DNA of 64,000 nucleotides from a phage: the sequence record OZ413489.1. One strand, given 5' to 3'. Both the position numbers and the translations under genes were made by a program. The notes under the pieces are model-generated. The model ran no database searches, was not told the origin of the DNA, and was given only the letters and a program-made list of their open reading frames with translations. Below are positions 2,727 to 57,743 of this stretch, in pieces; the first letter of the stretch is position 1, and each line of letters begins with the position of its first letter.

Positions 2727-3413
2727 ATGGCAGAGATTAAGTCGGATGTTAACCACATCCACACTCTGCCAGATTTTGTTCAGGGAGGTCTTGACTACCT
2801 GCCTGGAGATTTTCTGGCTGAGAAGGTTAATTTGGTCACATTCTTAACCGTGTACCTTAAAAGGTTGGAGGATGTTGATAAGATGCTGGTAGGTTTGGCT
2901 GAAGGAAGATTGCTTAACAATGCCAGCGGAAGATACCTTGACGAAGTTGGTAATCAACTTGGTATTCTTAGGAATGGACTTTCAGATGCTGATTTTCGTG
3001 CCACACTAATTATTCAGCAGGCCGCAGCATCAAGGGGCGGGACTCGCGAAGATGTCATCTCCACCTTGCGACAATTGTTCGGAAGAAACAATTTCGATAC
3101 GTGGAAAGGAGACAACTTCAGGTTTGACATAAATATTAGAAAAACTTGCTTTGACATATTGCAGTCTATCGATCAGATCTTAGATATGCTACCATTGCCT
3201 TGTCATTTGCGTCTTACAGAATCGCAAGGGCAAGCTTTTGGTTTTGAAGGGGACCATACAGCTCTTGGCTTCGGATCAGTGTGGGAAGAAAACCAATTCG
3301 GAGTTGGTGGGCTGGCTACTTTGCTGTATGTTCCTGACGTAAGACCTGATTGGGACACCACAACCATTTATTGTGAAAGTATTACAGTAAACGCAACTAG
3401 ACAGGAGGGTTAA
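2727..3413 (+). CDS. Baseplate/tail protein, gpI-like (putative)
   Basis: 228 aa; tightly coupled to flanking genes (stop/start overlap at 3413); position after the J-like gene. Confidence 0.4.
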   Translation: MAEIKSDVNHIHTLPDFVQGGLDYLPGDFLAEKVNLVTFLTVYLKRLEDVDKMLVGLAEGRLLNNASGRYLDEVGNQLGILRNGLSDADFRATLIIQQAAASRGGTREDVISTLRQLFGRNNFDTWKGDNFRFDINIRKTCFDILQSIDQILDMLPLPCHLRLTESQGQAFGFEGDHTALGFGSVWEENQFGVGGLATLLYVPDVRPDWDTTTIYCESITVNATRQEG

Positions 3414-5485
3414 TGGCAACAGCTATTTTTAAACCTTACCGTGATTACTCTACAATGGCTGCACGGTTTCATTACCGCACAGTTCAGGATACTGCAGTTC
3501 CTGGTAGGGATTATAATCATGTTGAGGGTGATGTAACTATCCCAATTGGGGCAACCAGTATTGAGATCCCAGTGGAAATTGTTGACAAATTACCCAACAG
3601 GTTGCCAAGAAGCTTCTTTATGGAGTTTTCATCAAAATCTCAAGGGGTGATGATTGGAACACAAAGGGCGAAATGTACAATAGTTTCAGATGAGAATCTT
3701 GACAGGATATCTTGGGATACTGTCGAGGAGAGAATGTTTCACCCAAGATATTGGGTTACATCTACCCAGCAGACTGAAAGCACCTGTATTGTTGCAGATA
3801 ATAACTGTTGTATTAACCGTTTAGTGTCAAGAACATATGGAGGTATGGCTGGGTGCATTTGGGAAACAGTTGACAAGTATGACCATTTCGGTATTGGGTT
3901 TGATGATCATTATGAGATGAGAAATACCAAGCTTTGGTTCAGAATGTCAATAACCAACGCCAGCAACTTCTCCACTCCTGAAAAGATGATTATGACTGTA
4001 GACCTTGTTGATGGCACAATCATCTATGTTCCTTTAGCTCAATATGCTGTCAGCATCTCAGAGGATAAGAATGTTGCAGAAATTCATATTGATTTCGAGG
4101 ACTGCGTCGGGATGGACCAGAACAACAATATGATGGGTGTTGATCCTCGACAGGTGAGAAGGATTTTAATACCGCTTATGCCTAAAGATTGGGTAAGCAA
4201 TAGCACAAACCCAAGAACGGAAAATGTAGAGTGTGAGTTGCGCCTAGATCTGCTTCAGCCAGACACAGGCTGGAAAATGATGCAACTTAACAATATTCAG
4301 GTGAAAGAACACGACGTTGGGATCTGCACAGCATATGACGATATGTGGAACGTGTCTCCTTTAAGGGTGTTGAACAATATCAAGCGTCTGGGCTATACCG
4401 GAACCATAAACCATTATGTTGGTATGAGTCATTATTATGACTACACATGGTCAGGAACTCAATGGTCTATAAACAGAACAGGAGCGCTAAACGCTGCAGC
4501 TTATAAATGGCATGATGATTTTATGTACAATGCCAAACGACATAACTTCGACGTTATGCAATCTGTAAGTTTTGAGCTTTTCAGCGATGCCTGCCCGTTG
4601 GAATGGACCCAAAGAGACTGGAACGATAACTACGCTAAAACAGGGTATACACCTTGTAGCTACCTCCTGTCTCCAACCATTGAAGAGGGTATGAATTTCC
4701 TTACTGCAGTATTTAAGAATTTTGCATCAGCCGCTATGAGAAACAACCTGCCAGTGATTATGCAGGTTGGTGAACCGTGGTGGTGGTACAATACCGATAC
4801 TCGTAGACCTTGTATTTATGATTACCCTACAAAGCAGGCGTTTTATGATGAGACAGGTGAGTATGCATTAGATATTGGGACTATTGACGATCCTAAAACT
4901 GGCGGTGTTTACGACAAGTATGTAGCATTTTGTCGTGGTAAGCTTGGCGCTCGTATTGCGGCTATTTCAAAGGCAATAAAGGCACACGCTGCATCAGCTC
5001 AGATGACAGCTCTACTGTTTTTCCCAACCATTATGGAAACCGAGCTTACGCAAAAGCTTAACCTTGCTGACCAATATAAAAAGGAAGCAGGTGCTCTTGA
5101 TTTCTTCTGCACCGAGTGCTACGATTGGGTGATGCAGGGAGGTATTGAAAAGGCAAAAGAGTCTGTAAACATACCTATCGTTAAGTTAGGTTGGCAACCG
5201 TCTGAAATACAATACCTTGCAGGGTTCGTTCCTAGTAAAGAGCTTGCTCCGGTATATGGTTACGACCCAACCAGGAATTACCAAGAATTTTTATGGAGAT
5301 GTATTTGCGGAAACATGGCAACTATAGAGTATAGATATCCTGAGGTAAAACAGTATGTGTGGGCATACCCGCAAGTAATGTCTGACAGCATCACTGTTAC
5401 CGCTAGAGATTCTACCGTGCTTCATATGGGGCAGGTTGCTCTGAAAGGGTATGTAGAAGATGTTGTCCCGCCAGACTTCTCATAA
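3413..5485 (+). CDS. Tail fibre / baseplate structural protein
   Basis: 690 aa ORF, start overlaps upstream stop (ATGG); within tail module; no recognisable enzymatic motif. Confidence 0.55.
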   Translation: MATAIFKPYRDYSTMAARFHYRTVQDTAVPGRDYNHVEGDVTIPIGATSIEIPVEIVDKLPNRLPRSFFMEFSSKSQGVMIGTQRAKCTIVSDENLDRISWDTVEERMFHPRYWVTSTQQTESTCIVADNNCCINRLVSRTYGGMAGCIWETVDKYDHFGIGFDDHYEMRNTKLWFRMSITNASNFSTPEKMIMTVDLVDGTIIYVPLAQYAVSISEDKNVAEIHIDFEDCVGMDQNNNMMGVDPRQVRRILIPLMPKDWVSNSTNPRTENVECELRLDLLQPDTGWKMMQLNNIQVKEHDVGICTAYDDMWNVSPLRVLNNIKRLGYTGTINHYVGMSHYYDYTWSGTQWSINRTGALNAAAYKWHDDFMYNAKRHNFDVMQSVSFELFSDACPLEWTQRDWNDNYAKTGYTPCSYLLSPTIEEGMNFLTAVFKNFASAAMRNNLPVIMQVGEPWWWYNTDTRRPCIYDYPTKQAFYDETGEYALDIGTIDDPKTGGVYDKYVAFCRGKLGARIAAISKAIKAHAASAQMTALLFFPTIMETELTQKLNLADQYKKEAGALDFFCTECYDWVMQGGIEKAKESVNIPIVKLGWQPSEIQYLAGFVPSKELAPVYGYDPTRNYQEFLWRCICGNMATIEYRYPEVKQYVWAYPQVMSDSITVTARDSTVLHMGQVALKGYVEDVVPPDFS

Positions 5486-27520: not shown

Positions 27521-28021
27521 GTGAAAATTAAGATCTTTGCTATTATTTTGAGCGCATTTTTATCGCTGCCTGTTGTTGCAGCACCAAAACAAAAAGTATA
27601 CCATACTTGCAAGCCATCAGATACTAAGGAAAACATTCTAGCATGCAATATCTACAGGGAAGCTAGAGGGGATGGCACGATGGGTATGCTGGCATCTGGG
27701 TTTGCCACCCTAAACAGGAAATCTCACCCCAAATACCCAGACACCATAAGAAAGATTGTCTACCAACCTAACCAGTTTTCGTGGACAAACCACGGCAAAA
27801 CTTTTAAGGTGACAGAAAAAGATTCATGGGATCACGCTAAAAGTCTTGCAAAGATGCTTCTAAAGGTCTATAATAACAACCATGTTGCATACATGGCTAT
27901 GGACATAACAGGTGGAGCAACACACTACCATACAACCAAAGTACGACCGAAATGGGCAAAAAAGATGCAGAGGACAGCTCAATTCGGGAGTCATATCTAC
28001 TACAAGGAGCGCAATAAATGA
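27521..28021 (+). CDS. Secreted SleB-like cell-wall hydrolase (candidate lysin)
   Basis: 166 aa; GTG start after RBS tggag; N-terminal signal-like peptide MKIKIFAIILSAFLSLPVVAAP; core residue pattern (YREARGDG ... NQFSW) resembles the SleB/Hydrolase_2 family. Confidence 0.6.
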   Translation: MKIKIFAIILSAFLSLPVVAAPKQKVYHTCKPSDTKENILACNIYREARGDGTMGMLASGFATLNRKSHPKYPDTIRKIVYQPNQFSWTNHGKTFKVTEKDSWDHAKSLAKMLLKVYNNNHVAYMAMDITGGATHYHTTKVRPKWAKKMQRTAQFGSHIYYKERNK

Positions 28022-28563
28022 TTGTAAACAGTAATGAAACTAAAGCAGTACTAACCGGAAATATGGAGGTCACCAGGGGCTCAATTTCTCTGAACAAAGA
28101 GACTTTTGGGCTAATCATTAAAGGGATTTACGAAGATAAGGTGCTGGCAAGCTGCCGTGAACCAATCTTCAATGCTGTGGACTCTCATGTTGAGTCTGGA
28201 CGGGGTGATGTACCGATCATCATTCACTCCCCTACAGACCTTGAACCATACTTCTTTGTGCAGGACGTTGGATTGGGTATGTCAGAAGAGATGGTCCGCA
28301 ACACTTTCATGAACCTCGGGGAGTCAACCAAGCGCAACAGCAACGCTCTGGTAGGTAATAAAGGTGTAGGTTCAAAGGCCCCGTTCAGCATGGTTGACCC
28401 TGCAGATGTGGTTAGTGTGCCATACCAACACAATAGCGCCAAGTGCCGTGCATGCCGCTATGAGATTGTGGTAGCTCCGGAAGCACGCAAAGATGGAGAC
28501 CCTATTGAATATGTAGTTGATCGTGACGGTAACACTATCGACATTCTTTACGAGGAGGCGTAA
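28018..28563 (+). CDS. Short GHKL-superfamily ATPase-domain protein
   Basis: 181 aa; Bergerat-fold motifs: N-box EPIFNAVDS, G1 box VQDVGLGM, G2-like GNKGVGSKAPF; too short to carry a transducer or dimerisation domain. Confidence 0.6.
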   Translation: MIVNSNETKAVLTGNMEVTRGSISLNKETFGLIIKGIYEDKVLASCREPIFNAVDSHVESGRGDVPIIIHSPTDLEPYFFVQDVGLGMSEEMVRNTFMNLGESTKRNSNALVGNKGVGSKAPFSMVDPADVVSVPYQHNSAKCRACRYEIVVAPEARKDGDPIEYVVDRDGNTIDILYEEA

Positions 28564-40333: not shown

Positions 40334-40699
40334 ATGGAACAAATGAACGATCAAGCGTCGGTTGCGATGAACGAGCAAGAACAACCTCAAGAATTTTTCT
40401 TAGGGTTAAGTAAAGATCAAGTGTCTCTTCTGCTAGTGCTTTCTTCTTTCATGGGAAGACTTCAGGAGCTTACACAACAGCCAGAGGCTGAACAATTATT
40501 CCAGGCTCTGCGTGAAGAAGAAAAATATCGTCGTTTGGACTATGCCTTAGGTTGGGTAGCTCAACAACGAGATATGCTGATGGCCCTCTCTGGGACCACA
40601 AGTTTTGCAATGGGCCTGTTGGCTCAAGTTCAGGACAAATTAATTCAAGCAGGGTTTGCACACACGGCAAACACTAACGAAGAACAAGGAGATAAATAA
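40334..40699 (+). CDS. Hypothetical helical protein
   Basis: 121 aa; RBS ggagatt; stop overlaps the next ATG. Confidence 0.45.
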   Translation: MEQMNDQASVAMNEQEQPQEFFLGLSKDQVSLLLVLSSFMGRLQELTQQPEAEQLFQALREEEKYRRLDYALGWVAQQRDMLMALSGTTSFAMGLLAQVQDKLIQAGFAHTANTNEEQGDK

Positions 40700-41925
40700 T
40701 GAGCGTTATTCAACAATTCGCTAACCCGATGAATCCGCGTGAAACTGTTTTACTAGCTCACGGCATGATTAAACGTGTCAGCATCAAGCCTATCAAAGGT
40801 GCTGATCCTACAACAGGTATTAAAACCACTGTGTGGCAAGGTAAGAAAATTGAATCCAGCCACACCATCTCTTTACTGATTTCTGAACTGGATTCCTCTG
40901 ATAACCTACTTCAAGGTGGTGAAGAAGTTTGGATCAGTATGGGCGATAAGCTGCTTAAACCAGGTCATCAAGACTCTGTCTCTGTTAAAATTGATGACAA
41001 GTGGGAAACCGTAACGCCAGGATGGATCGTAAATATCCCTTTGAAGGCAAACGAGCATAACGGTAAGACCTACTACAAAGGCTCACTGGCTAAGATGGTT
41101 AAGCTGGGTGCAGGAGAGGCTCCAGCAGCGACTCAGCAGCAAAAACAGCAACAAGGTGCACAATCACAAGGCCAGAAGCAGAAACCTCAGCAGAATGCCA
41201 ATCAGGACGTTTTACGCATCTATGGTGATGTGACTCAGATTGTTGGCAACGTGGTTACTGTTAATGACCACAAGATTGGCGAAGGTGCTATGGTTGTCAC
41301 TGATGAGCAGCTTAAAGACCTGGTGGTAGGTGGTCGTGTTGCAGCCATTGTTGACAAAGACACCGGAAACATTATCAGTGGCTTCAAGGCCTATCCTCCT
41401 AAGGCAGAGAACGGCACTCAAGGCTCTGGTGGCAAGCGTAAATCCTCTTACGACCCTATCGGTGTGGAGACGGGACATAGCATCAATGCGTTGCAGATCA
41501 TCCTGGATCGCGGGTTTAAGGTGGACGACCCACTAGGCGTGGCTAAAACACTGCACGTAGTCACCATTGAGCTTAAGAAAGAGTATGCTCAAGCCACCAA
41601 CCGAACTGAAGATGAAGTAGGTGCCAGTGTCGGCAATGCGGTGTTGAACGCTTGTCGCCGTATTGACAAGAAAACGAAAGTTGATGATTTTGCAGCGGCA
41701 ATTACTGCAGAAGCAAAAGATGTCTTGACTAATCTGGCTGAGCCGTTGTACGATTGGATCAAGAACGGTGCTGGGTCCACTGACCATCAAGAACCTCAAG
41801 CTGCCAAACAGGAAGCAGCTCCACAGCAAAACACTGTAGACGCTCCTCCTGTAAATGACGAGGAAGATGACCCGATGGATCAGAATCCAGCACAGTATGA
41901 GTTCGATGACTCGATCCCTTTCTGA
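40699..41925 (+). CDS. Single-stranded DNA-binding protein-like
   Basis: 408 aa; Q-rich low-complexity linker (QQQKQQQGAQSQGQKQKPQQ) and an acidic C-terminal tip ...YEFDDSIPF resembling the SSB C-terminal interaction motif (DDDIPF). Confidence 0.55.
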   Translation: MSVIQQFANPMNPRETVLLAHGMIKRVSIKPIKGADPTTGIKTTVWQGKKIESSHTISLLISELDSSDNLLQGGEEVWISMGDKLLKPGHQDSVSVKIDDKWETVTPGWIVNIPLKANEHNGKTYYKGSLAKMVKLGAGEAPAATQQQKQQQGAQSQGQKQKPQQNANQDVLRIYGDVTQIVGNVVTVNDHKIGEGAMVVTDEQLKDLVVGGRVAAIVDKDTGNIISGFKAYPPKAENGTQGSGGKRKSSYDPIGVETGHSINALQIILDRGFKVDDPLGVAKTLHVVTIELKKEYAQATNRTEDEVGASVGNAVLNACRRIDKKTKVDDFAAAITAEAKDVLTNLAEPLYDWIKNGAGSTDHQEPQAAKQEAAPQQNTVDAPPVNDEEDDPMDQNPAQYEFDDSIPF

Positions 41926-41933
41926 GGTCAGTT

Positions 41934-42512
41934 ATGAAATGCAAACGTTGTGGAGAGGACAAGGAGGCCTCCGACTTCTACACCAGTAACAAATCAACGT
42001 GCAAAGAGTGTTGCAAGAAGGCCAGCAGGGAGGCTGACCAATTTGCTAAAGACTCTTCAGAAAAAGGTGTAATACGTGTGTTGTACAAGGCTCAAAAGTG
42101 CAACAGCAAGCAAAGAGGTCACCCTCCTCCGACTTACACCAAAAAAGAGTTTAAGGAGTGGCTATACCTTAACGGTTACAAAGAGTTGTATGATCAGTGG
42201 GTAGCCAGCGGATACGACAAAAGGAAAAAGCCTTCTTGTGACAGGATAGATGATTTCAAAGGGTACTCTTTTGATAATATCCGTTTAACGACTTGGGGAG
42301 AAAATAAAGACAAGCAGACAGAGGATATTCTGTTACATAGAAGCACCAGCGGTAGACGGTGCAAAAATGTAAGGAGGTTGGACATGAATGGTAACGTTCT
42401 TAAAGAATGGGTATCTCACAACTCTTGTAGCAGAGAAACCGGAATATATATTGGTTACTACATTCATGAAAAAATTCCAGCTCCAGATGGATACTTATAC
42501 GAATACTTTTAA
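41934..42512 (+). CDS. HNH-family homing endonuclease
   Basis: 192 aa; N-terminal CxxC...F...CxxCC zinc motif (KCKRCGEDKEASDFY...CKECCK) and an HNH-like core (SCDRIDDFKGYSFDNIRLTTWGEN). Confidence 0.6.
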   Translation: MKCKRCGEDKEASDFYTSNKSTCKECCKKASREADQFAKDSSEKGVIRVLYKAQKCNSKQRGHPPPTYTKKEFKEWLYLNGYKELYDQWVASGYDKRKKPSCDRIDDFKGYSFDNIRLTTWGENKDKQTEDILLHRSTSGRRCKNVRRLDMNGNVLKEWVSHNSCSRETGIYIGYYIHEKIPAPDGYLYEYF

Positions 42513-42527
42513 CACATAACTAACATA

Positions 42528-42556
42528 GCCCTGCCCGAAAGGGTGGGGCATTTTTG
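42528..42556 (+). terminator. Rho-independent terminator (repeated hairpin, copy 2)
   Basis: gccctgcccgaaagggtggggc + atttttgtat; same hairpin as at 31531. Confidence 0.65.
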
Positions 42557-42574
42557 TATAAGGAGATCTGAAAA

Positions 42575-42991
42575 ATGACATTAGAAGATATCATTGTTAA
42601 ACCTGAGAACTATGACCAATACAACCTGTCAACTCAATCTGTAGACCTTGGATGCGCCACAGTTAGTGCGTGGCTGGTTAATGGAAAAGAGCTGGACAAG
42701 TGCTTAGAAGCTCACATGTCTGTTAACAAGTTTCTGGATGAAAATACTCACTGGCTTGAGGGTGCTGGAGTATATGCTTCATGGTTGGAGAGCATGGGCT
42801 TTGACTATCAATCTGATGAAGGGTGGTGGAGCTATCTGGCTATCTGTCCAGAAACACTGCAATGCTTCATGAAATACTCTGAAGATCTTGAGTACCGAGC
42901 GGTGGTTGATAGTGCTATTGCCCGTTATAGCCGTAAACCTTTTTCCCATGACATTAAAACTGTGGAAGAATTTGTTGAAGTTTTCTGTTGA
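42575..42991 (+). CDS. Hypothetical protein
   Basis: 138 aa; RBS taaggagatc. Confidence 0.5.
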   Translation: MTLEDIIVKPENYDQYNLSTQSVDLGCATVSAWLVNGKELDKCLEAHMSVNKFLDENTHWLEGAGVYASWLESMGFDYQSDEGWWSYLAICPETLQCFMKYSEDLEYRAVVDSAIARYSRKPFSHDIKTVEEFVEVFC

Positions 42992-43087
42992 CACAGGTTG
43001 AAAGGTGTGCAATTATAACTTCATAAAACGGGAGGACGCGATGAACGAAGAAAACTGGGATGTATAACTAACAGGAGACCACTGCCC

Positions 43088-43285
43088 ATGATTTATCGAA
43101 TCCGTGTAAGAGAAGATGCACCAGGCTGTTACTTTGACTGGCGTGGGTGGTGGTTTCTCCACCCGATGGATGGACTCACAGATAGAATGCTGGATGCTGC
43201 CCTTTATACAGATACCGACATAGAATATAATCTTTATCTGAAGGACGGTATAGATAACGGCCTATTTGAAGCAATTCCTGTGTAA
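43088..43285 (+). CDS. Hypothetical small protein
   Basis: 65 aa; RBS caggagacc. Confidence 0.45.
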   Translation: MIYRIRVREDAPGCYFDWRGWWFLHPMDGLTDRMLDAALYTDTDIEYNLYLKDGIDNGLFEAIPV

Positions 43286-43353
43286 GAGACTGCGATAGCC
43301 ATGTTTTATGATCTTCCTGTAGCACCACCACCTATTGAACCCGGAGAACCAAG

Positions 43354-43773
43354 ATGATCTATGAAATGCCAAAATTGATCCGTGACGATGCCCAAAACCA
43401 CACCATTATTATGGGTAAACGCATGAATATCCTTTGCCGTAACGATTTCTGTGGTGGAGAATACGTTGCAGACTACTTCGGTGAGAATGGTAAACACCCT
43501 GTTCAGTTCTTCCTTGACCATGAGGATAACATTATCTGGGAGTTTGAAACTGAAGATATCCGCAACCTCTTCATCTTCCTCGGTGTCAAGGTTAAGGCCA
43601 ATTTCGCAGAAGGTGAGTGCGACGATTGTGGATTTTATGAGGTGACAGACTTTTATCTCCCGAGTGGCAAGAACCTTTACTATGAGAGTCACTTCGGAAA
43701 CACCAACATGCCTCAAAGCTGGGAAGAATTTTTCAGTATCGTAGAAGAGGAGCTGGCATACCGTGATTATTGA
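43354..43773 (+). CDS. Hypothetical Cys-containing protein (coupled to macro-domain gene)
   Basis: 139 aa; RBS ggagaacc; Cys pairs (CRNDFC, CDDC); 3' end overlaps the macro-domain start. Confidence 0.5.
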   Translation: MIYEMPKLIRDDAQNHTIIMGKRMNILCRNDFCGGEYVADYFGENGKHPVQFFLDHEDNIIWEFETEDIRNLFIFLGVKVKANFAEGECDDCGFYEVTDFYLPSGKNLYYESHFGNTNMPQSWEEFFSIVEEELAYRDY

Positions 43774-44221
43774 TACTGTAAAGGGAGATTTAATCTCCCT
43801 TTTTAAGAGCGGTGCTGGTCACCTGATCCACGGTTGTAACTGCTTCCACACAATGGGTAAAGGTATAGCAAAACAGATTGCCCGTGAGTTCCCTCAAGCA
43901 TTGGCAGCCGACAAAGAGACGAGACACGGTTGCCTAAGTAAACTGGGTGCGTTCTCCCGATGGGAGCACTTATCTCCGATAGGTATTGTCTACGGAATCA
44001 ATCTGTATACTCAGTTCTACCCAGGGCCTAATGCTGAATATTTCTCAATCCTGAAAGGCTTTGAGCTAGTCAATGAGGTATTCAAGGGATCGACTTTACC
44101 ATTCTACATCCCTAAGATCGGGTGCGGCATAGGCGGTTTGAAGTGGGAGCACGTAGAGGACGTTATTAACCTCGCCACTTTTGATATAGATATTATCGTG
44201 GTGGAGTACAAAGAGTGTTGA
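43763..44221 (+). CDS. Macro-domain (ADP-ribose-binding/processing) protein
   Basis: 152 aa; GTG start overlapping the upstream gene; macro signatures HGCNCFHTMGKGIA and IPKIGCGIGGL. Confidence 0.65.
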   Translation: MIIDTVKGDLISLFKSGAGHLIHGCNCFHTMGKGIAKQIAREFPQALAADKETRHGCLSKLGAFSRWEHLSPIGIVYGINLYTQFYPGPNAEYFSILKGFELVNEVFKGSTLPFYIPKIGCGIGGLKWEHVEDVINLATFDIDIIVVEYKEC

Positions 44222-44246
44222 CAGCTGGCTTTTGAGATGGTATAGT
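44218..44246 (+). promoter_or_regulatory. sigma70-type promoter
   Basis: TTGACA-17 bp-TATAGT overlapping the macro gene stop. Confidence 0.5.
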
Positions 44247-44274
44247 CACCACAACGATTGAGAGAGGGAGCACT

Positions 44275-44475
44275 ATGGAGACTAAAATCTTAATTCTGGC
44301 TGTGATAGATACGACCGAAGGGGCCGTGTTCGAATCTGCAGGAGGGTATTTCTACCTGCCCTACGGAAAAAGAACTTCCGAACCGAGTAAAGATTCAATC
44401 CTTAAAGTGTTCCCTTGTGCTTTCTGGCTGGAGATTCTGGTAGAAGATTGCAGAGGATTGGGGAGAGAATTATGA
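44275..44475 (+). CDS. Hypothetical small protein
   Basis: 66 aa; RBS gagggag. Confidence 0.45.
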   Translation: METKILILAVIDTTEGAVFESAGGYFYLPYGKRTSEPSKDSILKVFPCAFWLEILVEDCRGLGREL

Positions 44476-44666
44476 GAAACAAGAAAGAGCTTTACTCTGG
44501 CGAGTGGATCAACGATCAACAGGTCGGAGAGGTAACCTGCTTCCGATGTTTTACCAGGTACAATCTTAAAACTGCACCAAAAAGTGTTCCAAAGACTGAT
44601 GGTTATTATATAAAAGAACCTCATTGCCCAAAATGTAAATGCCGATTGTACTGGAGCAATCTGTAA
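44472..44666 (+). CDS. Small zinc-ribbon protein
   Basis: Track ORF from 44415; ATG at 44472 with RBS ggggagag and ATGA coupling; CxxC...CxxC (CFRC, CPKC). Confidence 0.45.
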   Translation: MRNKKELYSGEWINDQQVGEVTCFRCFTRYNLKTAPKSVPKTDGYYIKEPHCPKCKCRLYWSNL

Positions 44667-44670
44667 GAGG

Positions 44671-44698
44671 TTGACATCTGAAAACTGCAGTGTATAAT
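44671..44698 (+). promoter_or_regulatory. sigma70-type promoter (extended -10)
   Basis: TTGACA-16 bp-TGtTATAAT. Confidence 0.55.
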
Positions 44699-44729
44699 AT
44701 ACGCATAAACTAACAGAGAGCGATGTATT

Positions 44730-44921
44730 ATGGTAATTTTTAACCGGGATGGTATCATAGTTAGACAGCACCCGTTCCTTGAATACTATCAAATTGAGCA
44801 ATGGTGCTACGGGGATTGCAGTCACTCCTATGGGCAAAGTTGGGGATACCGTACAGTTTTTGAATCCACAGACCTTGACAAAGTAAGACAGAAAGTTTTA
44901 GAACTTATTAACAACAAGTGA
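44730..44921 (+). CDS. Hypothetical small protein
   Basis: 63 aa ORF downstream of the promoter. Confidence 0.4.
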   Translation: MVIFNRDGIIVRQHPFLEYYQIEQWCYGDCSHSYGQSWGYRTVFESTDLDKVRQKVLELINNK

Positions 44922-44928
44922 GTATGAT

Positions 44929-45261
44929 ATGGTAACATTAGAAAGACGTAAAGCTATTGCCGCCACACTGGCAGACATCTTTTGGGATTGTAATTTAAAA
45001 TCTACCCGAAATTGTGGCGCATCTGTAGATGTATTATTCCCACGGCCTACTATTGTTGCAATGGGCAACCTTCTTGATGTGGTATATGGAGCATGGGACA
45101 AGGAAGGTGGATTCTATATCTGGCAACCTGACTACGGGACTTGGAAAGAGGTTAGTGGTTCTACGGACTTCACTCCTGCAGTGGCTAAAATGGATGGCTG
45201 GAAAATCTATGTCGGTAACGACATGGAACTGAAAGGCGAAATTGTTTACTGGTTACCTTAA
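44929..45261 (+). CDS. Hypothetical protein
   Basis: 110 aa. Confidence 0.45.
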   Translation: MVTLERRKAIAATLADIFWDCNLKSTRNCGASVDVLFPRPTIVAMGNLLDVVYGAWDKEGGFYIWQPDYGTWKEVSGSTDFTPAVAKMDGWKIYVGNDMELKGEIVYWLP

Positions 45262-45282
45262 GAGAATGCAGGAGATAAAGTT

Positions 45283-45528
45283 ATGAACAAAGGGTGGACA
45301 TTTGTAGACGGCGTTAAAAACATGCCTCTAGGAAAGTATATTGTAGCCATGGCTGATGAGGATGGCAATGTGGATTTCGGAGCTTGCGAGGTTGTTCTTG
45401 CAGGATCTGGTAACTATGTGGACAAAACCGGGATAATTAACGGTCAGTTCTACTTTGATCACAACCCTGTTGTAGCGTATATGGCTATGCCAGAGTTTAA
45501 GTTCCCAAAGGATGGTGCTGATGTTTAA
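45283..45528 (+). CDS. Hypothetical protein
   Basis: 81 aa; RBS caggagat. Confidence 0.45.
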   Translation: MNKGWTFVDGVKNMPLGKYIVAMADEDGNVDFGACEVVLAGSGNYVDKTGIINGQFYFDHNPVVAYMAMPEFKFPKDGADV

Positions 45529-53770: not shown

Positions 53771-54034
53771 TTGTTACCGCTGGCTATCTTCAAAGATGCG
53801 GAAGCAAAACAACGCCGGATCTCAATACATGAGATCATCAACCTTAACGCTGGAGGCACACCATACCGCCCAGGACCTGGCCGTGAGATGGACAATACGC
53901 TAGCGATCCTGAAGATACGCCGTAAACGGTCCTCCCTTACTCTGGACTCATTACACACAATGCAGCCTCCGTTCCAGGTGACCGGGAAACGGATCGCCAG
54001 GTCCTGGACAAAGGCCAATGATCGGACCGTATAA
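53771..54034 (+). CDS. Possible gene with aberrant start (candidate frameshifted gene or non-coding transcript)
   Basis: 87-codon ORF with only a TTG start; a well-placed RBS (taggagttaaaatc) precedes an ATG at about 53764 in another frame that stops after 22 codons. Confidence 0.25.
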   Translation: MLPLAIFKDAEAKQRRISIHEIINLNAGGTPYRPGPGREMDNTLAILKIRRKRSSLTLDSLHTMQPPFQVTGKRIARSWTKANDRTV

Positions 54035-54848: not shown

Positions 54849-54867
54849 TACAACAAGGTGCACGGTC

Positions 54868-54893
54868 AGGGGCTTAAAGCCCCTTTCTTTTTG
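54868..54893 (+). terminator. Rho-independent terminator
   Basis: aggggc-ttaa-agcccct + ttctttttgtct. Confidence 0.75.
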
Positions 54894-55770
54894 TCTCCTC
54901 TTTTCCTACCACAAATGGCCCCGCCTGGCAAATGGAATAATCAACAAGCCAGCAATTAACCCCACTGTACAAACATACATATAAAATAACTATTGCATAA
55001 TTTTTCATTGTGTGGTAGCAGTGCCATTTTTACACGTTTTTCCTTCCAAAATTGCACGTAATGCAGCATTTGCACAAAATTTAACCTGATGCATATCTTC
55101 AATAGCTTGTCAACAACTAAAAATCTTTATAAGTCATACACTTACATAACTACAAAAACGTTTTCTACGTGAAAAATCGAGTATAACTATAGCCGCCAGA
55201 TCTCAGAATTTACGTACGCTCGCCATTCTATAGCCTGCTAAGCATTTATTCCAACCATAGAATAACGGAATAGTCAATACCTGCATAAAATAATTATTCG
55301 TGTAAACTGCATAACATAAATCGGCCCAGGTGTCAACATTTTTCGTAAACAGTCTGGAATTGTCACGTTAGGTTACCATAAGCAGAGAAATCTTTAGTCG
55401 TCTAATGTTTACTGTACATTACTATACTGACTGGAATCATTAGATGACTAAGAGAAAGATAAGAAATAATTAATAATGTAATTATTTTACCTGTAACAAT
55501 AAGGCAACTATGCAAACGAATGGCATGGCGCGACGGAGTCGCGACATAATATAAAAGCAGTAACCATCACCCCCGTGATAGTTTGTCTGCAAACTATTAA
55601 TCAGATCATAGTTGCCTTGTATTTAGTTAATCATGACATGACAAGCAAGGCAACTATAGATCTGCTAATAGTTGCCCTGCTTTTATATTATGTCATGCTA
55701 ATTATAATCAGTGCGATTATTGTCATGTATAATTATTGTCATGCAAACGAATGGCATGGCTGATTATCGG

Positions 55771-55860
55771 TGTGTAAACAGTCAATCATGTAAATGGTTA
55801 GCATGTGAACAATCAGGAATGTAAACAATCCAGTGTGTAAACTAATAGGTGTGTAAAAGT
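55771..55860. repeat. TGTAAAC-type iteron cluster
   Basis: gtgtaaaca, atgtaaatg, atgtaaaca, gtgtaaact, gtgtaaaag within about 90 bp. Confidence 0.45.
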
Positions 55861-56001
55861 GTCATGTTGTGTCAGTTAGGTCACATTATGTCAGACAAGT
55901 TTTTCTCCTCTTTGTCAAGTGCTGCATGAAAAATTTACAAGCTTGTATGGTAGCATTTTTGCGGCCCTGTTTACATTCAGTAATGTATGTATAATCCTTG
56001 T

Positions 56002-56165
56002 TGTGTGGGCGTTTAGACGTCTAGACGGTTGGAAGTCCACAGGTCAATATCTAATCTATCGGCTGCTAACTATATCCCACACATGTGTGGGCGTTTAGAC
56101 GTCTAGACGGTTGGAAGTCCACAGGTCAATATCTAATCTATCGGCTGCTAACTATATCCCACACA
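56002..56165. repeat. Perfect tandem duplication, 2 x 82 bp
   Basis: The unit tgtgtgggcgtttagacgtctagacggttggaagtccacaggtcaatatctaatctatcggctgctaactatatcccaca occurs twice head-to-tail with no mismatch seen; each copy contains the palindrome TAGACGTCTA; the junction forms CCCACACATGTGTGGG. Confidence 0.8.
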
Positions 56166-57461
56166 AATAGTAAGAAATATGATTGTTATATGCGTAAACT
56201 GTAACTCATGTTATCAATCCCTGTATGGATCGCCAGTGGTGCGCATAATAGGTATTATGTTAAATTGCCCGTAATGATAACAGTTCTCACAATGATAGGT
56301 ATTCTCATTCATCCACACAAAATAGGTTGCAAATGTTGTGCCACTGTGTGAACGGCCTGGCCTATTAATTTCTCTCACTGCCTCGATATTTGAGAATTGT
56401 TATAAGAATGAGAAGTATTCCCATTCCGTCCGCCTGGCAGCACTCCTGTAGGTCCTGCAAGGACTCTAGCTGAAAGCTAGACCCTTCGGGCCTCCCTGTA
56501 GGTCAGGTCAAAATCGTGGTAGAATTGGGCCTGTTCAGATATTTCTGGCTGACTCTTCAGGTCTGTGTGGGAAAAGCCAACCTCTCCGGCGGGGCAGGGG
56601 GTCATGACGGGAAAATTGCAGGTCAATTAAAAAATTTACGTGGTGTATGAAGCGCTCTTCAGGTAAGGCATGTATTATGGGATGAAACCCTCTTCAGGCA
56701 ATGATATTTGTGGGTGTGATATTTGCTGGAAAGCCAGATATGACGGGACTCCCGGCGGGGATGGGGTAGTACAGACAGGGAAAATATGAGAATGTAGTTG
56801 GGGAAATTGATCAGACAGGTAGAGTATGGAATATGTTACAAGTATGTTAAATATGGAGGTTGAATATCTGTAGGATTTGTGTGTAAAATCAAAGACTTAA
56901 GGGGTGTTGTGGTATTTTCTATAAATAATTCAAGTTTAATAGGCAATATTTGTCTCTATCCGCTTTGTGTGGTAAACAGATTCAGATTAGATTGGTTTAC
57001 AAGTGTATACATAATATACAAATTAAAGATACAAGAAACCCCCCTCCCCCTTCGGCTACCATTCACCTTTTCCTCTGACTGGTACTTAAACACTTATTCA
57101 GACTCTTCAGGTTATCACCCATATATCATATGGCAGTGACTGGTGTCCTCCGGCCCCTCTTTCGTCACCCGTCCGCTTCGCCATGCTAATGCCATAGCCA
57201 ATGGTTCGGTTGTTCACTCTGTTCACTCAGGTGTATCTCCATACCCCTTCAAACCGAAGAGAACAGAAAACCCGAATTACTCGGTAAAAGAAAAGAGAAG
57301 AACTTAATTTTATCAGGATAGGCAAGAATGTCAAGGCATGACTGCTCACTAAACAAGCAAACAGTCATGTGTGGAAGGTAAGTGATTGTGGTGGTGGGAA
57401 ATTTAGTTGAAAGATGTGTTATAGGTGCTCCCAGCACTTTAGCCGGGTAGCTAATTGTGTG

Positions 57462-57743
57462 TCAGTCCAGTGGTTCATCACCTACTTCACTGAAATCAAT
57501 GTTCATGGTCTCCTCCCAACCATCAATCTCAGCACCAGAGTAGAGATCTTTAGGACTTACTCCCAAAGCATCAGCAACAGAGTCCATATTTAACACCTCT
57601 GGCAGGTATGATTCATCGAATTCAAGGTAAATCAGGCCACGAGTGTTGTCAGCTCCACCAAATATTTCTATCTTCATGAAATCTCCTCTGGGAATGAGAG
57701 TGTGAACAGGGTTTATACGTTCCAATGCGCTGGAATTATGCAC
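57462..57743 (-). CDS. Hypothetical acidic protein
   Basis: 93-aa track ORF; possible true start at the internal Met (MKIEIFGG). Confidence 0.45.
   Translation of the reverse strand: MHNSSALERINPVHTLIPRGDFMKIEIFGGADNTRGLIYLEFDESYLPEVLNMDSVADALGVSPKDLYSGAEIDGWEETMNIDFSEVGDEPLD

Follow-up and report, generated by a model that had tools for sequence, protein, structure and literature searches.

About 41% of myoviruses carry a macro domain (Iyer et al. 2022). In phage T4, a transposon screen and a clean knockout of tk.4 specifically sensitised the phage to DarTG2, and the gene product, which is needed for growth on DarTG2 hosts, was named AdfM, for anti-DarT factor (bioRxiv 10.1101/2025.11.20.689424). 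The same name is borne by gp104 of the Chimallivirus PhiKZ, a stand-alone phage macrodomain that counters DarTG2 and removes T-ADPr from DNA in vitro (Cell Rep 2026, PMC13309987), and that is imported into the phage nucleus. SCO6735, a cellular protein of Streptomyces coelicolor, is a proven hydrolase of the thymidine-ADPr link in DNA; it neutralises DarT and rescues cells that are exposed to the toxin, and activity is lost in the Q85A/E mutants and nearly lost in N27S (PMC9411070). The human enzyme TARG1/OARD1 (4J5Q-S) is eukaryotic and hydrolyses ADP-ribosylation of nucleic acids as well as the Glu-linked ADP-ribosylation of proteins. The substrate can also be a small molecule, as for the Adpp of Vibrio phage Gary, which is encoded in the NARP1-AP operon, turns ADPR-1P into ADPR and is required to overcome aRES (bioRxiv 10.64898/2026.01.28.702374).

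We analysed a stretch of 64,000 nucleotides (OZ413489.1; hereafter the window), whose source is a Vequintavirus, an rV5-like E. coli myophage. According to the ORF list and the sequence, ORF1 (43354..43773, plus strand; 139 aa) begins with an ATG and ends with the TGA at 43771-43773. It is followed on the same strand by a stand-alone macro-domain gene (43763..44221; 152 aa) whose GTG start lies inside the 3' end of ORF1. The overlap reported in the preliminary description, between this start and the stop of the 139-aa protein, is thus real and measures 11 nt. The GAGGAG Shine-Dalgarno of the macro gene (43747..43752, plus strand) is also within the 3' end of ORF1 and is separated from the GTG by 10 nt, and both this element and the junction sequence are invariant in four aligned Vequintaviruses. 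The GTG start is further supported by the alignment with T4 Tk.4, which begins at residue 1. We take the two genes to be real rather than chance ORFs for three reasons. First, both have full-length PHROG matches, ORF1 to phrog_8157 (E 6e-62) and the macro protein to phrog_335 (E 3.9e-60). Second, the annotation of relatives gives identical boundaries for both. Third, substitutions relative to phage HdK5 are in excess at third codon positions (21/17/51 at positions 1/2/3 in ORF1, 6/1/14 in the macro gene). An antisense ORF (43306..43716) was set aside because these codon-position statistics favour coding on the plus strand.

The presumed transcription unit starts with a 65-aa early ORF (43088..43285, plus strand; phrog_9903) that is annotated in relatives. 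A consensus scan places a sigma-70-like promoter candidate (TTGACA-17-AATTAT with TG) at 42988..43016 on the plus strand, which may be the start of a unit made of these three genes, the 65-aa ORF, ORF1 and the macro gene; on the upstream side the unit would be bounded by a terminator-like hairpin at 42528-42549. A strong sigma-70-like promoter predicted by consensus scan (TTGACA-17-TATAGT with TG, 11/12 matches; 44218..44246, plus strand) overlaps the macro stop codon and is probably where the next early unit begins.

The 152-aa product had been called a macro-domain protein from two motifs, HGCNCFHTMGKGIA (residues 23-36) and IPKIGCGIGGL (residues 116-126). Both are present and the call is borne out by several lines of evidence. 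The protein passes the gathering cut-off of Pfam Macro PF01661 (28.3 bits against 22, E 1.8e-6), an entry precomputed on many of its listed homologues. A profile of 53 homologues matches BT1257 (E 9e-18), SCO6735 (2.4e-16) and the macro domain of M. tuberculosis DarG (5.7e-16), as well as TARG1 and Poa1p, and the DarG models of NCBIfam and PADLOC match residues 4-147 (E 6e-13 and 1e-13, respectively). The AF2 model (pLDDT 96.3, pTM 0.91) and its Foldseek matches display the three-layer alpha/beta/alpha macro fold: the best match is TARG1 (TM 0.78-0.85, E 3e-10), DarG, Poa1p, BT1257 and SCO6735 all follow at E<=1e-6, and there are 179 macrodomain-type matches in the PDB at E<=1e-3.

The residues expected around the ligand are conserved. 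Conservation among homologues and alignments with SCO6735 and DarG delimit the H23-G-C-N26-C27 motif (codons at 43829..43843, plus strand); its N26 corresponds to the Asn that all macro domains conserve (SCO6735 N27, TaqDarG N22) and is present in 117/117 homologues, and H23 is found in 116 of them. HMMER alignments place Q84, within the N-L-Y-T-Q motif (Q84 codon at 44012..44014, plus strand), where DarG (K80) and TARG1 (K84) have their catalytic Lys and SCO6735 has Q85; Gln occupies this position in 116/117 homologues. The loops G32-x-G34 and G120-C-G-I-G-G125, the latter being the diphosphate-binding loop (44120..44137, plus strand), are conserved among homologues and align with the matching loops of DarG, SCO6735 and TARG1. 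Across the 117 homologues, H23, N26, G34, A36, D50, N80, Q84, G120 and G125 vary little or not at all. Judged by sequence and model, this is a real macro domain of the ALC1/TARG1-like class with an intact predicted ADP-ribose site.

Its alignments place the gene in the T4 Tk.4/AdfM family, phrog_335. The T4 and RB49 Tk.4 proteins are likewise stand-alone, of about 152-155 aa and members of PHROG 335, and they share with the window protein the motifs HGCNCFHTMG, NLYTQFxPGPN and P-x-IG-x-GIG, the Gln at the Lys site and the short loop. The family signature, H-G-C-N-C followed by N-L-Y-T-Q and a short P-G-P-N loop, is identical in the window, RB49 and T4. BLASTP against T4 Tk.4 covers residues 1-150 of 152 (39% identity, E 5e-41), and identity to RB49 Tk.4 reaches 68.9%. 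Among 120 sequences examined, the short loop is present in 83, and TQ in 113 of the 117 that carry the motif. The genes resemble each other in character too: like tk.4 in T4, the Vequintavirus gene is non-essential and lies in a gene-dense region of small ORFs without known function. Their immediate contexts differ: tk.4 sits between vs and tk and overlaps vs in T4 and RB49, whereas the window gene follows ORF1, within a run of small Vequintavirus genes. In phage Bas54, the counterparts of ORF1 and of the macro gene by position and size, bas54_0091 and bas54_0092, both tolerate transposon insertions on E. coli K-12, and some relatives have copies that are truncated, frameshifted or fused. The macro gene is in this sense accessory. 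Near-identical phages already annotate it, variously as a macro domain, a phosphatase or Poa1p-like.

The best profile matches in the PDB are two cellular proteins, SCO6735 (5E3B, E 2e-16) and BT1257 of Bacteroides (2FG1/2AFC, E 9e-18), with only about 22-24% identity to the window protein. They belong to the same ALC1/TARG1-like class and share its Gln at the catalytic-Lys site, its positioning Asn and the His that precedes it; Q85 and N27 of SCO6735 pair with Q84 and N26, and Val25 is replaced by Gly24. The mobile loop of SCO6735 is about 5-6 residues longer and carries K89 and K94, whereas the window protein has the short QFYPGPN; HMMER shows this 5-6 residue insertion in both SCO6735 and BT1257 relative to the phage profile. 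The macrodomain of DarG (T. aquaticus 5M31/5M3E, M. tuberculosis 5M3I) has the same fold and class and a second loop that is also of GGL type, and is the best single-sequence match in the PDB (E 4.5e-7). It differs in two respects. First, its catalytic K80, in a P-T-K motif, corresponds to Q84 in both single-sequence and profile alignments. Second, the window protein ends at residue 152, with no C-terminal DarT-binding domain and no adjacent darT. We therefore rejected membership in DarG itself on score, catalytic Lys and architecture: the protein scores 48.8 bits against the 250 of the NCBIfam equivalog NF048014 and covers model positions 2-143 of 338 only. TARG1 shares the compact fold, at a size of about 150 aa, and its catalytic dyad K84/D125 corresponds to Q84/G124. 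The PhiKZ AdfM is only 20% identical (26.6 bits) and of the Lys type (FPTK), like DarG; it is a separate macrodomain recruitment under the same name. These alignments show that the T4-type AdfM family is, as far as sequence can tell, mechanistically of the Gln (SCO6735-like) kind and not of the Lys (DarG-like) kind.

The suggestion that the macro protein might counter ADP-ribosylating host defences gains support from its homology to T4 Tk.4/AdfM (bioRxiv 10.1101/2025.11.20.689424), and counter-defence is the best-supported function. The explanation that we regard as probable, if by no great distance, is that this AdfM-family macrodomain reverses the DNA marks of DarT2 and lets the phage escape DarTG2, ORF1 being a separate gene. 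The macro protein would be made early in infection and would bind the ADP-ribose that the host toxin DarT2 puts on thymidines of single-stranded phage DNA. It would then hydrolyse the bond between base and ribose, releasing ADP-ribose and restoring replicable DNA, and it is through this restoration that the phage would escape the defence. Catalysis would be lysine-independent, as in SCO6735, with Q84, held by N26, positioning the distal ribose. The analysis itself shows the gene structure, the macro fold, the family, the conserved active-site residues and the lack of conserved linkage to ORF1; the DNA substrate, the DarT2 target and the early expression are inferred. SCO6735 acts on DNA with the same Gln (PMC9411070), and DarT2 marks are removed in vitro even by the more distant, Lys-type gp104 of PhiKZ (PMC13309987).

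Some observations count against this reading. The identity to the tested T4 protein is only 39%, and what T4 Tk.4 contributes is genetics. The DarG catalytic Lys is missing, and the NCBIfam DarG score is far under the threshold. The phage protein is without the long Lys-bearing mobile loop that the authors of the SCO6735 study tied to DNA binding. The literature that we searched holds no report of DarTG2 acting on Vequintaviruses or of their resistance to it, nor a DarTG2 condition for Bas54. Should the assignment hold, rV5-like phages, which are of interest as candidates in phage therapy and biocontrol, would come equipped against DarTG2, and the gene would help to predict host range on DarTG2-positive E. 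coli. None of this will surprise specialists: macro domains are common in myoviruses and this one is already annotated as macro.

The main rival function is that of an ADP-ribose-1''-phosphate phosphatase (Poa1p/Adpp-like) with a small-molecule substrate. Such an enzyme could detoxify or recycle the ADPR-1''P that arises from RES-type NAD+ phosphorylase defences (aRES), or clear a by-product of NAD+-dependent RNA repair. The PHROG and RefSeq labels of the family, 'phosphatase' or 'Poa1p-like', point in this direction, and yeast Poa1p (6LFQ-6LFU), which we grouped with Adpp among the closest known systems, is among the best structural and profile matches; H23 and T30 fall on the positions mutated in the Poa1p H23A and S30A structures (T30 being Ser in Poa1p). 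There is also a homologue in Vibrio phage Bennett. This Adpp-type protein is 35% identical, has the H-x-C-N-C motif and the Gln, and is encoded between Adps and Namat. The same macro clade thus contains the ADPR-1''P phosphatase Adpp, and its enzymes may act on small molecules, because this Adps-phosphatase-Namat arrangement is like the NARP1-AP operon of phage Gary. It has also been argued that phage macro domains target mostly soluble ADPr derivatives (Iyer et al. 2022), and HdK5 encodes a cluster of polynucleotide kinase (Pnk), RNA ligase A and an NAD-dependent deacylase (sirtuin) into which an RNA-repair role would fit. However, that cluster is ~85 kb from the macro gene in HdK5. With the Bennett Adps and Namat as queries, tblastn (E<=1) gave no homologues in the window, in HdK5 6941-70000 and 95000-139328, or in MaxTheCat 54837-97617, and without NARP1 dephosphorylation of ADPR-1P restores no NAD+. 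In sequence, too, the macro protein resembles T4 Tk.4 (122 bits) far more than it does the Adpp type (69 bits for the Bennett protein): it shares TQ and the short loop with T4, whereas Bennett has GQ and a 7-residue loop insertion, and the phenotype of T4 Tk.4 is specific to DarTG2. On this balance we find the phosphatase function unlikely, if the most serious competitor. With the T4-type family being of the Gln kind and its clade including Adpp, the labels 'phosphatase' and 'AdfM' each cover proteins that may differ in substrate.

The macro protein could alternatively be the antitoxin-like or regulatory partner of an enzyme of the phage itself, reversing or tuning ADP-ribosylation by a phage-encoded ADP-ribosyltransferase or sirtuin, a partnership with a transferase having been raised in the preliminary description. 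Phage ART-macro and sirtuin-macro pairs do exist (Iyer et al. 2022), and the Vequintavirus HdK5 is annotated with an NAD-dependent deacylase. Yet this sirtuin is far from the macro gene, in the RNA-repair cluster, and no ART is annotated in the stretches of HdK5 and MaxTheCat that we read. The neighbourhood in the window speaks the same way: none of the ten ORFs tested between 40699 and 46044 matches ART, sirtuin, NADAR, Tpt1 or Nudix families, and the only proteins recognised among them are an EndoVII/HNH-like homing endonuclease and a Phage_zn_bind_2 protein. We thus rejected an ADP-ribosylation partner among the neighbours. Moreover, Alt, ModA and ModB are ARTs of T4, yet knocking out tk.4 in this phage gives a phenotype specific to DarTG2 and the gene is otherwise non-essential. 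A role as partner of a phage enzyme is the least probable of the readings considered here.

There is also the gene that precedes the macro gene to account for. ORF1 and the macro gene could, as the preliminary description suggests, form a translationally coupled two-component module, in which ORF1 would be a new ADP-ribosylation-related partner, such as a DarT-binding inhibitor (a split mimic of DarG), a regulator or a substrate adaptor. DarG itself combines a macro domain with a toxin-binding domain (PMC11825919). ORF1 is acidic (pI about 4.4), like many phage inhibitor proteins, the overlap with its internal Shine-Dalgarno is invariant in the four aligned Vequintavirus junctions, gene order is identical in the relatives examined, and both ORF1 and a closely related macro gene are common to Vequintavirus and Krischvirus. 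But the linkage breaks down outside Vequintavirus. In the Krischvirus RB49 the ORF1 homologue, RB49ORF064c, is upstream of dam, which it overlaps, and 9 kb from tk.4, and in a third ORF1 lineage (L006) an 8.1-kb locus (6 kb upstream, 1.7 kb downstream) has no macro gene. Among phage records, about 2,794 carry the macro gene and only 177 carry ORF1, so that >93% of macro-carrying records are without it. These counts, together with RB49 and the third lineage, led us to reject a conserved ORF1-macro linkage. The T4 AdfM works without any ORF1 homologue, its gene overlapping vs instead. Nor is the overlap unusual, gene overlaps being routine in this type of genome: in the closest relative 25 of 90 adjacent same-strand pairs overlap (28%), and in three of these the overlap is exactly 11 nt. 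Evolution is about five times faster in ORF1 than in the macro gene, a deletion in one relative fuses the N-terminal part of ORF1 to the C-terminal part of the macro protein, and another relative has a homing-endonuclease fusion in an ORF1-family gene. A coupled module is, on this evidence, improbable. The best explanation is that ORF1 is a separate, fast-evolving, acidic early gene, which in Vequintavirus merely precedes and overlaps the macro gene.

The ORF1 protein has a narrow distribution, its homologues being confined to Vequintavirus, Krischvirus and a small number of uncultured phages. Among 5.8 billion sequences searched there were four matches, or ten with a profile, and an exhaustive HMMER search over 1.84 billion representatives gave 11; P0135, a repetitive surface protein of 1189 aa (E 7.7e-4), was judged a chance match. 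Profile and structure searches that recovered macro domains and macro folds for the 152-aa protein found for ORF1 no ART, NADAR, Tpt1, DarG-C-terminal or other match, by profile or by fold, and its proposed place in an ADP-ribosylation module is not supported. A more novel reading, very improbable in our view, makes ORF1 the first of a new family of acidic early proteins of phages, narrow in distribution, built on a C-x-x-C...H-F-G-N core and with no recognisable fold. ORF1 could then be an independent anti-defence or host-takeover factor, and in Vequintavirus it may have been set in translational register with AdfM so that both act against DarTG-type systems, for instance as a DarT binder standing in for the missing C-terminal domain of DarG.

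Conservation in ORF1 is concentrated in the C-terminal half (about residues 64-133), with an invariant C89-D-x-C92-G...L-P-x-G...H113-F-G-N pattern, and the N-terminal half is variable. Two Cys pairs had been pointed out, CRNDFC (residues 28-33) and CDDC (residues 89-92). Both are present, but only CDDC (codons at 43618..43629, plus strand) is conserved in the alignments: of the two Cys in CRNDFC, the second is replaced by Trp in all three other sequences of Vequintavirus type that we retrieved, and the first is missing from the Krischvirus homologues. In the secondary structure of the model, CDDC is at the turn of a predicted beta-hairpin (E81-89 / E93-101). A zinc-binding Cys-pair protein would call for four conserved ligands; since C28 and C33 are not conserved, the only invariant potential metal ligands in the alignments are C89, C92 and H113, and a Cys2-His-plus-acid metal site is possible.

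The window is a stretch of an rV5-like Vequintavirus genome: 124 phage records match bases 42500-45300, with Escherichia phages MaxTheCat (Bas57) and A6-1 at the top (96.7% identity). The preliminary description placed two overlapping ORFs here, and we recovered both on the + strand, together with all four of the peptide strings it cited: ORF1 (43354-43773, ATG start, 139 aa) and the macro ORF (43763-44221, GTG start, 152 aa). The GTG, preceded by GAGGAG (43747-43752), lies inside ORF1 by 11 nt. These are real genes because 1) each matches a PHROG over its full length; 2) their boundaries are identical in the annotations of relatives; 3) the sequence of their junction is unchanged across four Vequintaviruses; and 4) differences from the related phage HdK5 are richest at third codon positions (21/17/51 by position for ORF1, 6/1/14 for the macro gene). 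They belong to a run of small + strand genes interspersed with sigma-70-like promoter candidates at 42988, 44218 and 44671 and a terminator-like hairpin at 42528-42549; going by these consensus matches, the arrangement is consistent with early transcription.

That the 152-aa product is a macro-domain protein was borne out by Pfam (Macro, 28.3 bits against a threshold of 22), by a homologue profile and by an AlphaFold model. The profile drew on 53 of the protein's 121 database homologues; at E-values of 1e-14 to 1e-18 it finds BT1257, SCO6735, the macrodomains of DarG, TARG1 and Poa1p. The model (pLDDT 96.3) superposes best on TARG1 (TM 0.78-0.85), then on Poa1p, DarG, BT1257 and SCO6735, which puts the protein in the ALC1/TARG1-like macrodomain class. 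Invariant or nearly so in 117 homologues are H23-G-(C/A)-N26-C27, M31-G-x-G34-x-A36, D50, N80-x-Y-T-Q84 and P117-x-I-G-x-G-x-x-G125. Where DarG and TARG1 have their catalytic lysine (K80 and K84), this protein has Q84, and SCO6735 (Q85) and BT1257 likewise have Gln. SCO6735 strips ADP-ribose off thymidine-ADP-ribosylated DNA and shields cells from DarT; Q85A/E abolishes its activity and N27S nearly does (PMC9411070). Since an enzyme with the same Gln is active and loses activity when it is replaced, the Gln is a hallmark of a lysine-independent subgroup and does not signal loss of catalysis.

The proposal that this protein counters ADP-ribosylating host defences is supported, and can be sharpened to the family of the T4 macro protein Tk.4. 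Homologues occur in 2,794 of 50,697 phage records (tblastn), among them tk.4 of T4 (39% identity over 150 of 152 residues) and of the Krischvirus RB49 (69%). BLASTP against T4 Tk.4 gives an E-value of 5e-41 with all signature motifs in common, including NLYTQFxPGPN, and phrog_335 contains both proteins. According to the HIDEN-SEQ preprint, tk.4 was the sole significant T4 hit on a DarTG2-expressing host, and a clean knockout made T4 sensitive to DarTG2; the gene is called adfM there (anti-DarT factor; bioRxiv 10.1101/2025.11.20.689424). The same name was given to gp104 of the chimallivirus PhiKZ, which in vitro clears DNA of DarT2 marks (PMC13309987). Yet gp104 is of the Lys (FPTK) type and only 20% identical to the macro protein, so the two AdfM proteins are independent recruitments of a macrodomain.

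Near-identical Vequintavirus records already label the gene variously as 'macro domain protein', 'phosphatase' or 'Poa1p-like'. Adpp, the macro protein associated with NARP1, is an ADPR-1''-phosphate phosphatase that allows phages to rebuild NAD+ following attack by aRES defences (bioRxiv 10.64898/2026.01.28.702374). The main rival reading is that the macro protein shares this activity: Adpp falls within its clade, and H23 and T30 occupy the positions of Poa1p H23 and S30. The Adps-phosphatase-Namat arrangement also occurs in Vibrio phage Bennett, whose macro protein is 35% identical to ours. However, our protein scores 122 bits to Tk.4 against 69 to the Bennett protein, and it shares with T4 a TQ motif and a short loop; in Bennett the motif is GQ and the loop carries a 7-residue insertion. 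Moreover, searches of the window and of roughly 80% of the HdK5 genome turned up no homologue of Adps or Namat. For these reasons we favour the Tk.4/AdfM assignment and regard the phosphatase as unlikely. The macro protein is, on balance, a Gln-type macrodomain of the Tk.4/AdfM family that probably reverses DarT2 thymidine ADP-ribosylation of phage DNA. It belongs to a known, recently characterised kind, whose macro domain public records already annotate.

ORF1 had been suggested as a new component of a module with the macro protein, but the evidence speaks against it. Its homologues occur in only 177 of the 2,794 records carrying the macro gene. In RB49 the homologue RB49ORF064c (39% identity; RB49 40734-41165, positions 3001-3432 of locus L003) ends exactly at the start of dam (DNA adenine methylase), with a 1-nt overlap, and lies 9 kb from tk.4, itself flanked by vs and tk. 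ORF1-family proteins are therefore packed tightly against differing downstream genes in differing phages. The macro gene is absent from the 8.1-kb locus of a third, uncultured ORF1 lineage, and in T4 it overlaps vs, not an ORF1 homologue. Overlaps of start and stop codons are common in this phage; in MaxTheCat they involve 25 of 90 adjacent same-strand gene pairs, three of which overlap by 11 nt. ORF1 also evolves about five times as fast as the macro gene, and ten flanking ORFs between 40699 and 46044 gave no match to ART, NADAR, Tpt1 or Nudix families. Both genes fit the pattern of accessory genes: their counterparts by position and size in phage Bas54 (bas54_0091, bas54_0092) accept transposon insertions in E. 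coli K-12, one relative has an ORF1-macro deletion fusion (P0004), the macro protein is truncated in others (P0023, P0041, P0065), and in phage Alma a T-run has lost one base.

ORF1 itself remains an ORFan of unknown function. Its sole match is phrog_8157, also of unknown function, with nothing significant in Pfam, NCBIfam, PADLOC or PDB sequence profiles; the family numbers 10 clusters in 5.8 billion proteins and 11 representatives in 1.84 billion. Every member is acidic (pI 4.3-4.5). Of the two Cys pairs noted previously, only C89/C92 is invariant, together with H113; C28/C33 is not kept, C28 being missing from Krischvirus homologues and C33 replaced by Trp in all three other Vequintavirus-type sequences retrieved. 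Sixteen 'Campylobacter phage' records (MG0656xx, host C. jejuni) contain this Vequintavirus region, with 73-75% amino-acid identity to our ORF1 in representatives; apparently these are E. coli rV5-like phages that were deposited as Campylobacter ones.

Upstream, a 408-aa protein of unknown function (40699-41925, phrog_4477) is rich in Gln and Lys across a low-complexity centre and ends in an acidic tail; bas54_0087, at the same position in Bas54, is in the essential class in HIDEN-SEQ. Between this gene and the terminator lies a 192-aa EndoVII/HNH-like homing endonuclease (41934-42512, phrog_1035, no Pfam hit), missing in MaxTheCat and A6-1, the closest relatives, and found in inoa, HeinrichReichert and Bas54. 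The element is mobile within this neighbourhood, since another phage (P0132) has the N-terminus of a related endonuclease joined to the C-terminus of an ORF1-family protein. Downstream, a 64-aa CxxC...CxxC protein (44472-44666; Phage_zn_bind_2, PF23903, E 8e-23) is directly followed by a perfect sigma-70 consensus promoter (44671-44698, TTGACA-16-TATAAT).

The window as a whole has no tRNA genes. Its + strand and - strand gene blocks are separated by about 2.6 kb of gene-poor sequence (54866-57462), which is conserved less well than the flanks (93-96%, with rearranged pieces). Judging by the matching MaxTheCat layout, this sequence seems to be the counterpart of a roughly 2-kb Bas54 intergenic region for which the HIDEN-SEQ preprint recorded no transposon insertions and proposed an important function (bioRxiv 10.1101/2025.11.20.689424). 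Beyond the window, HdK5 encodes a polynucleotide kinase, phosphoesterase, RNA ligase A and NAD-dependent deacylase (sirtuin) cluster (99258-101821; L009 4259-6822), of the NAD+-linked RNA-repair type treated by Iyer et al. 2022. Two segments of MaxTheCat are absent from the window: about 2.3 kb at ~53777-53784, which contains some ten small hypothetical genes (approximately bas57_0118 to 0127), and about 2.6 kb of rIIA and rIIB. The latter loss leaves a 181-aa ORF (28018-28563) joining the rIIA N-terminus in-frame to the rIIB C-terminus at ~28389-28420, where the two BLAST pieces share 32 bp, which suggests deletion between short repeats. The junction is contiguous in none of 120 related phage records. 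The fusion resembles classical rII deletions such as T4 r1589, and it may be the sign of a variant that arose in the laboratory or of an unusual natural one.
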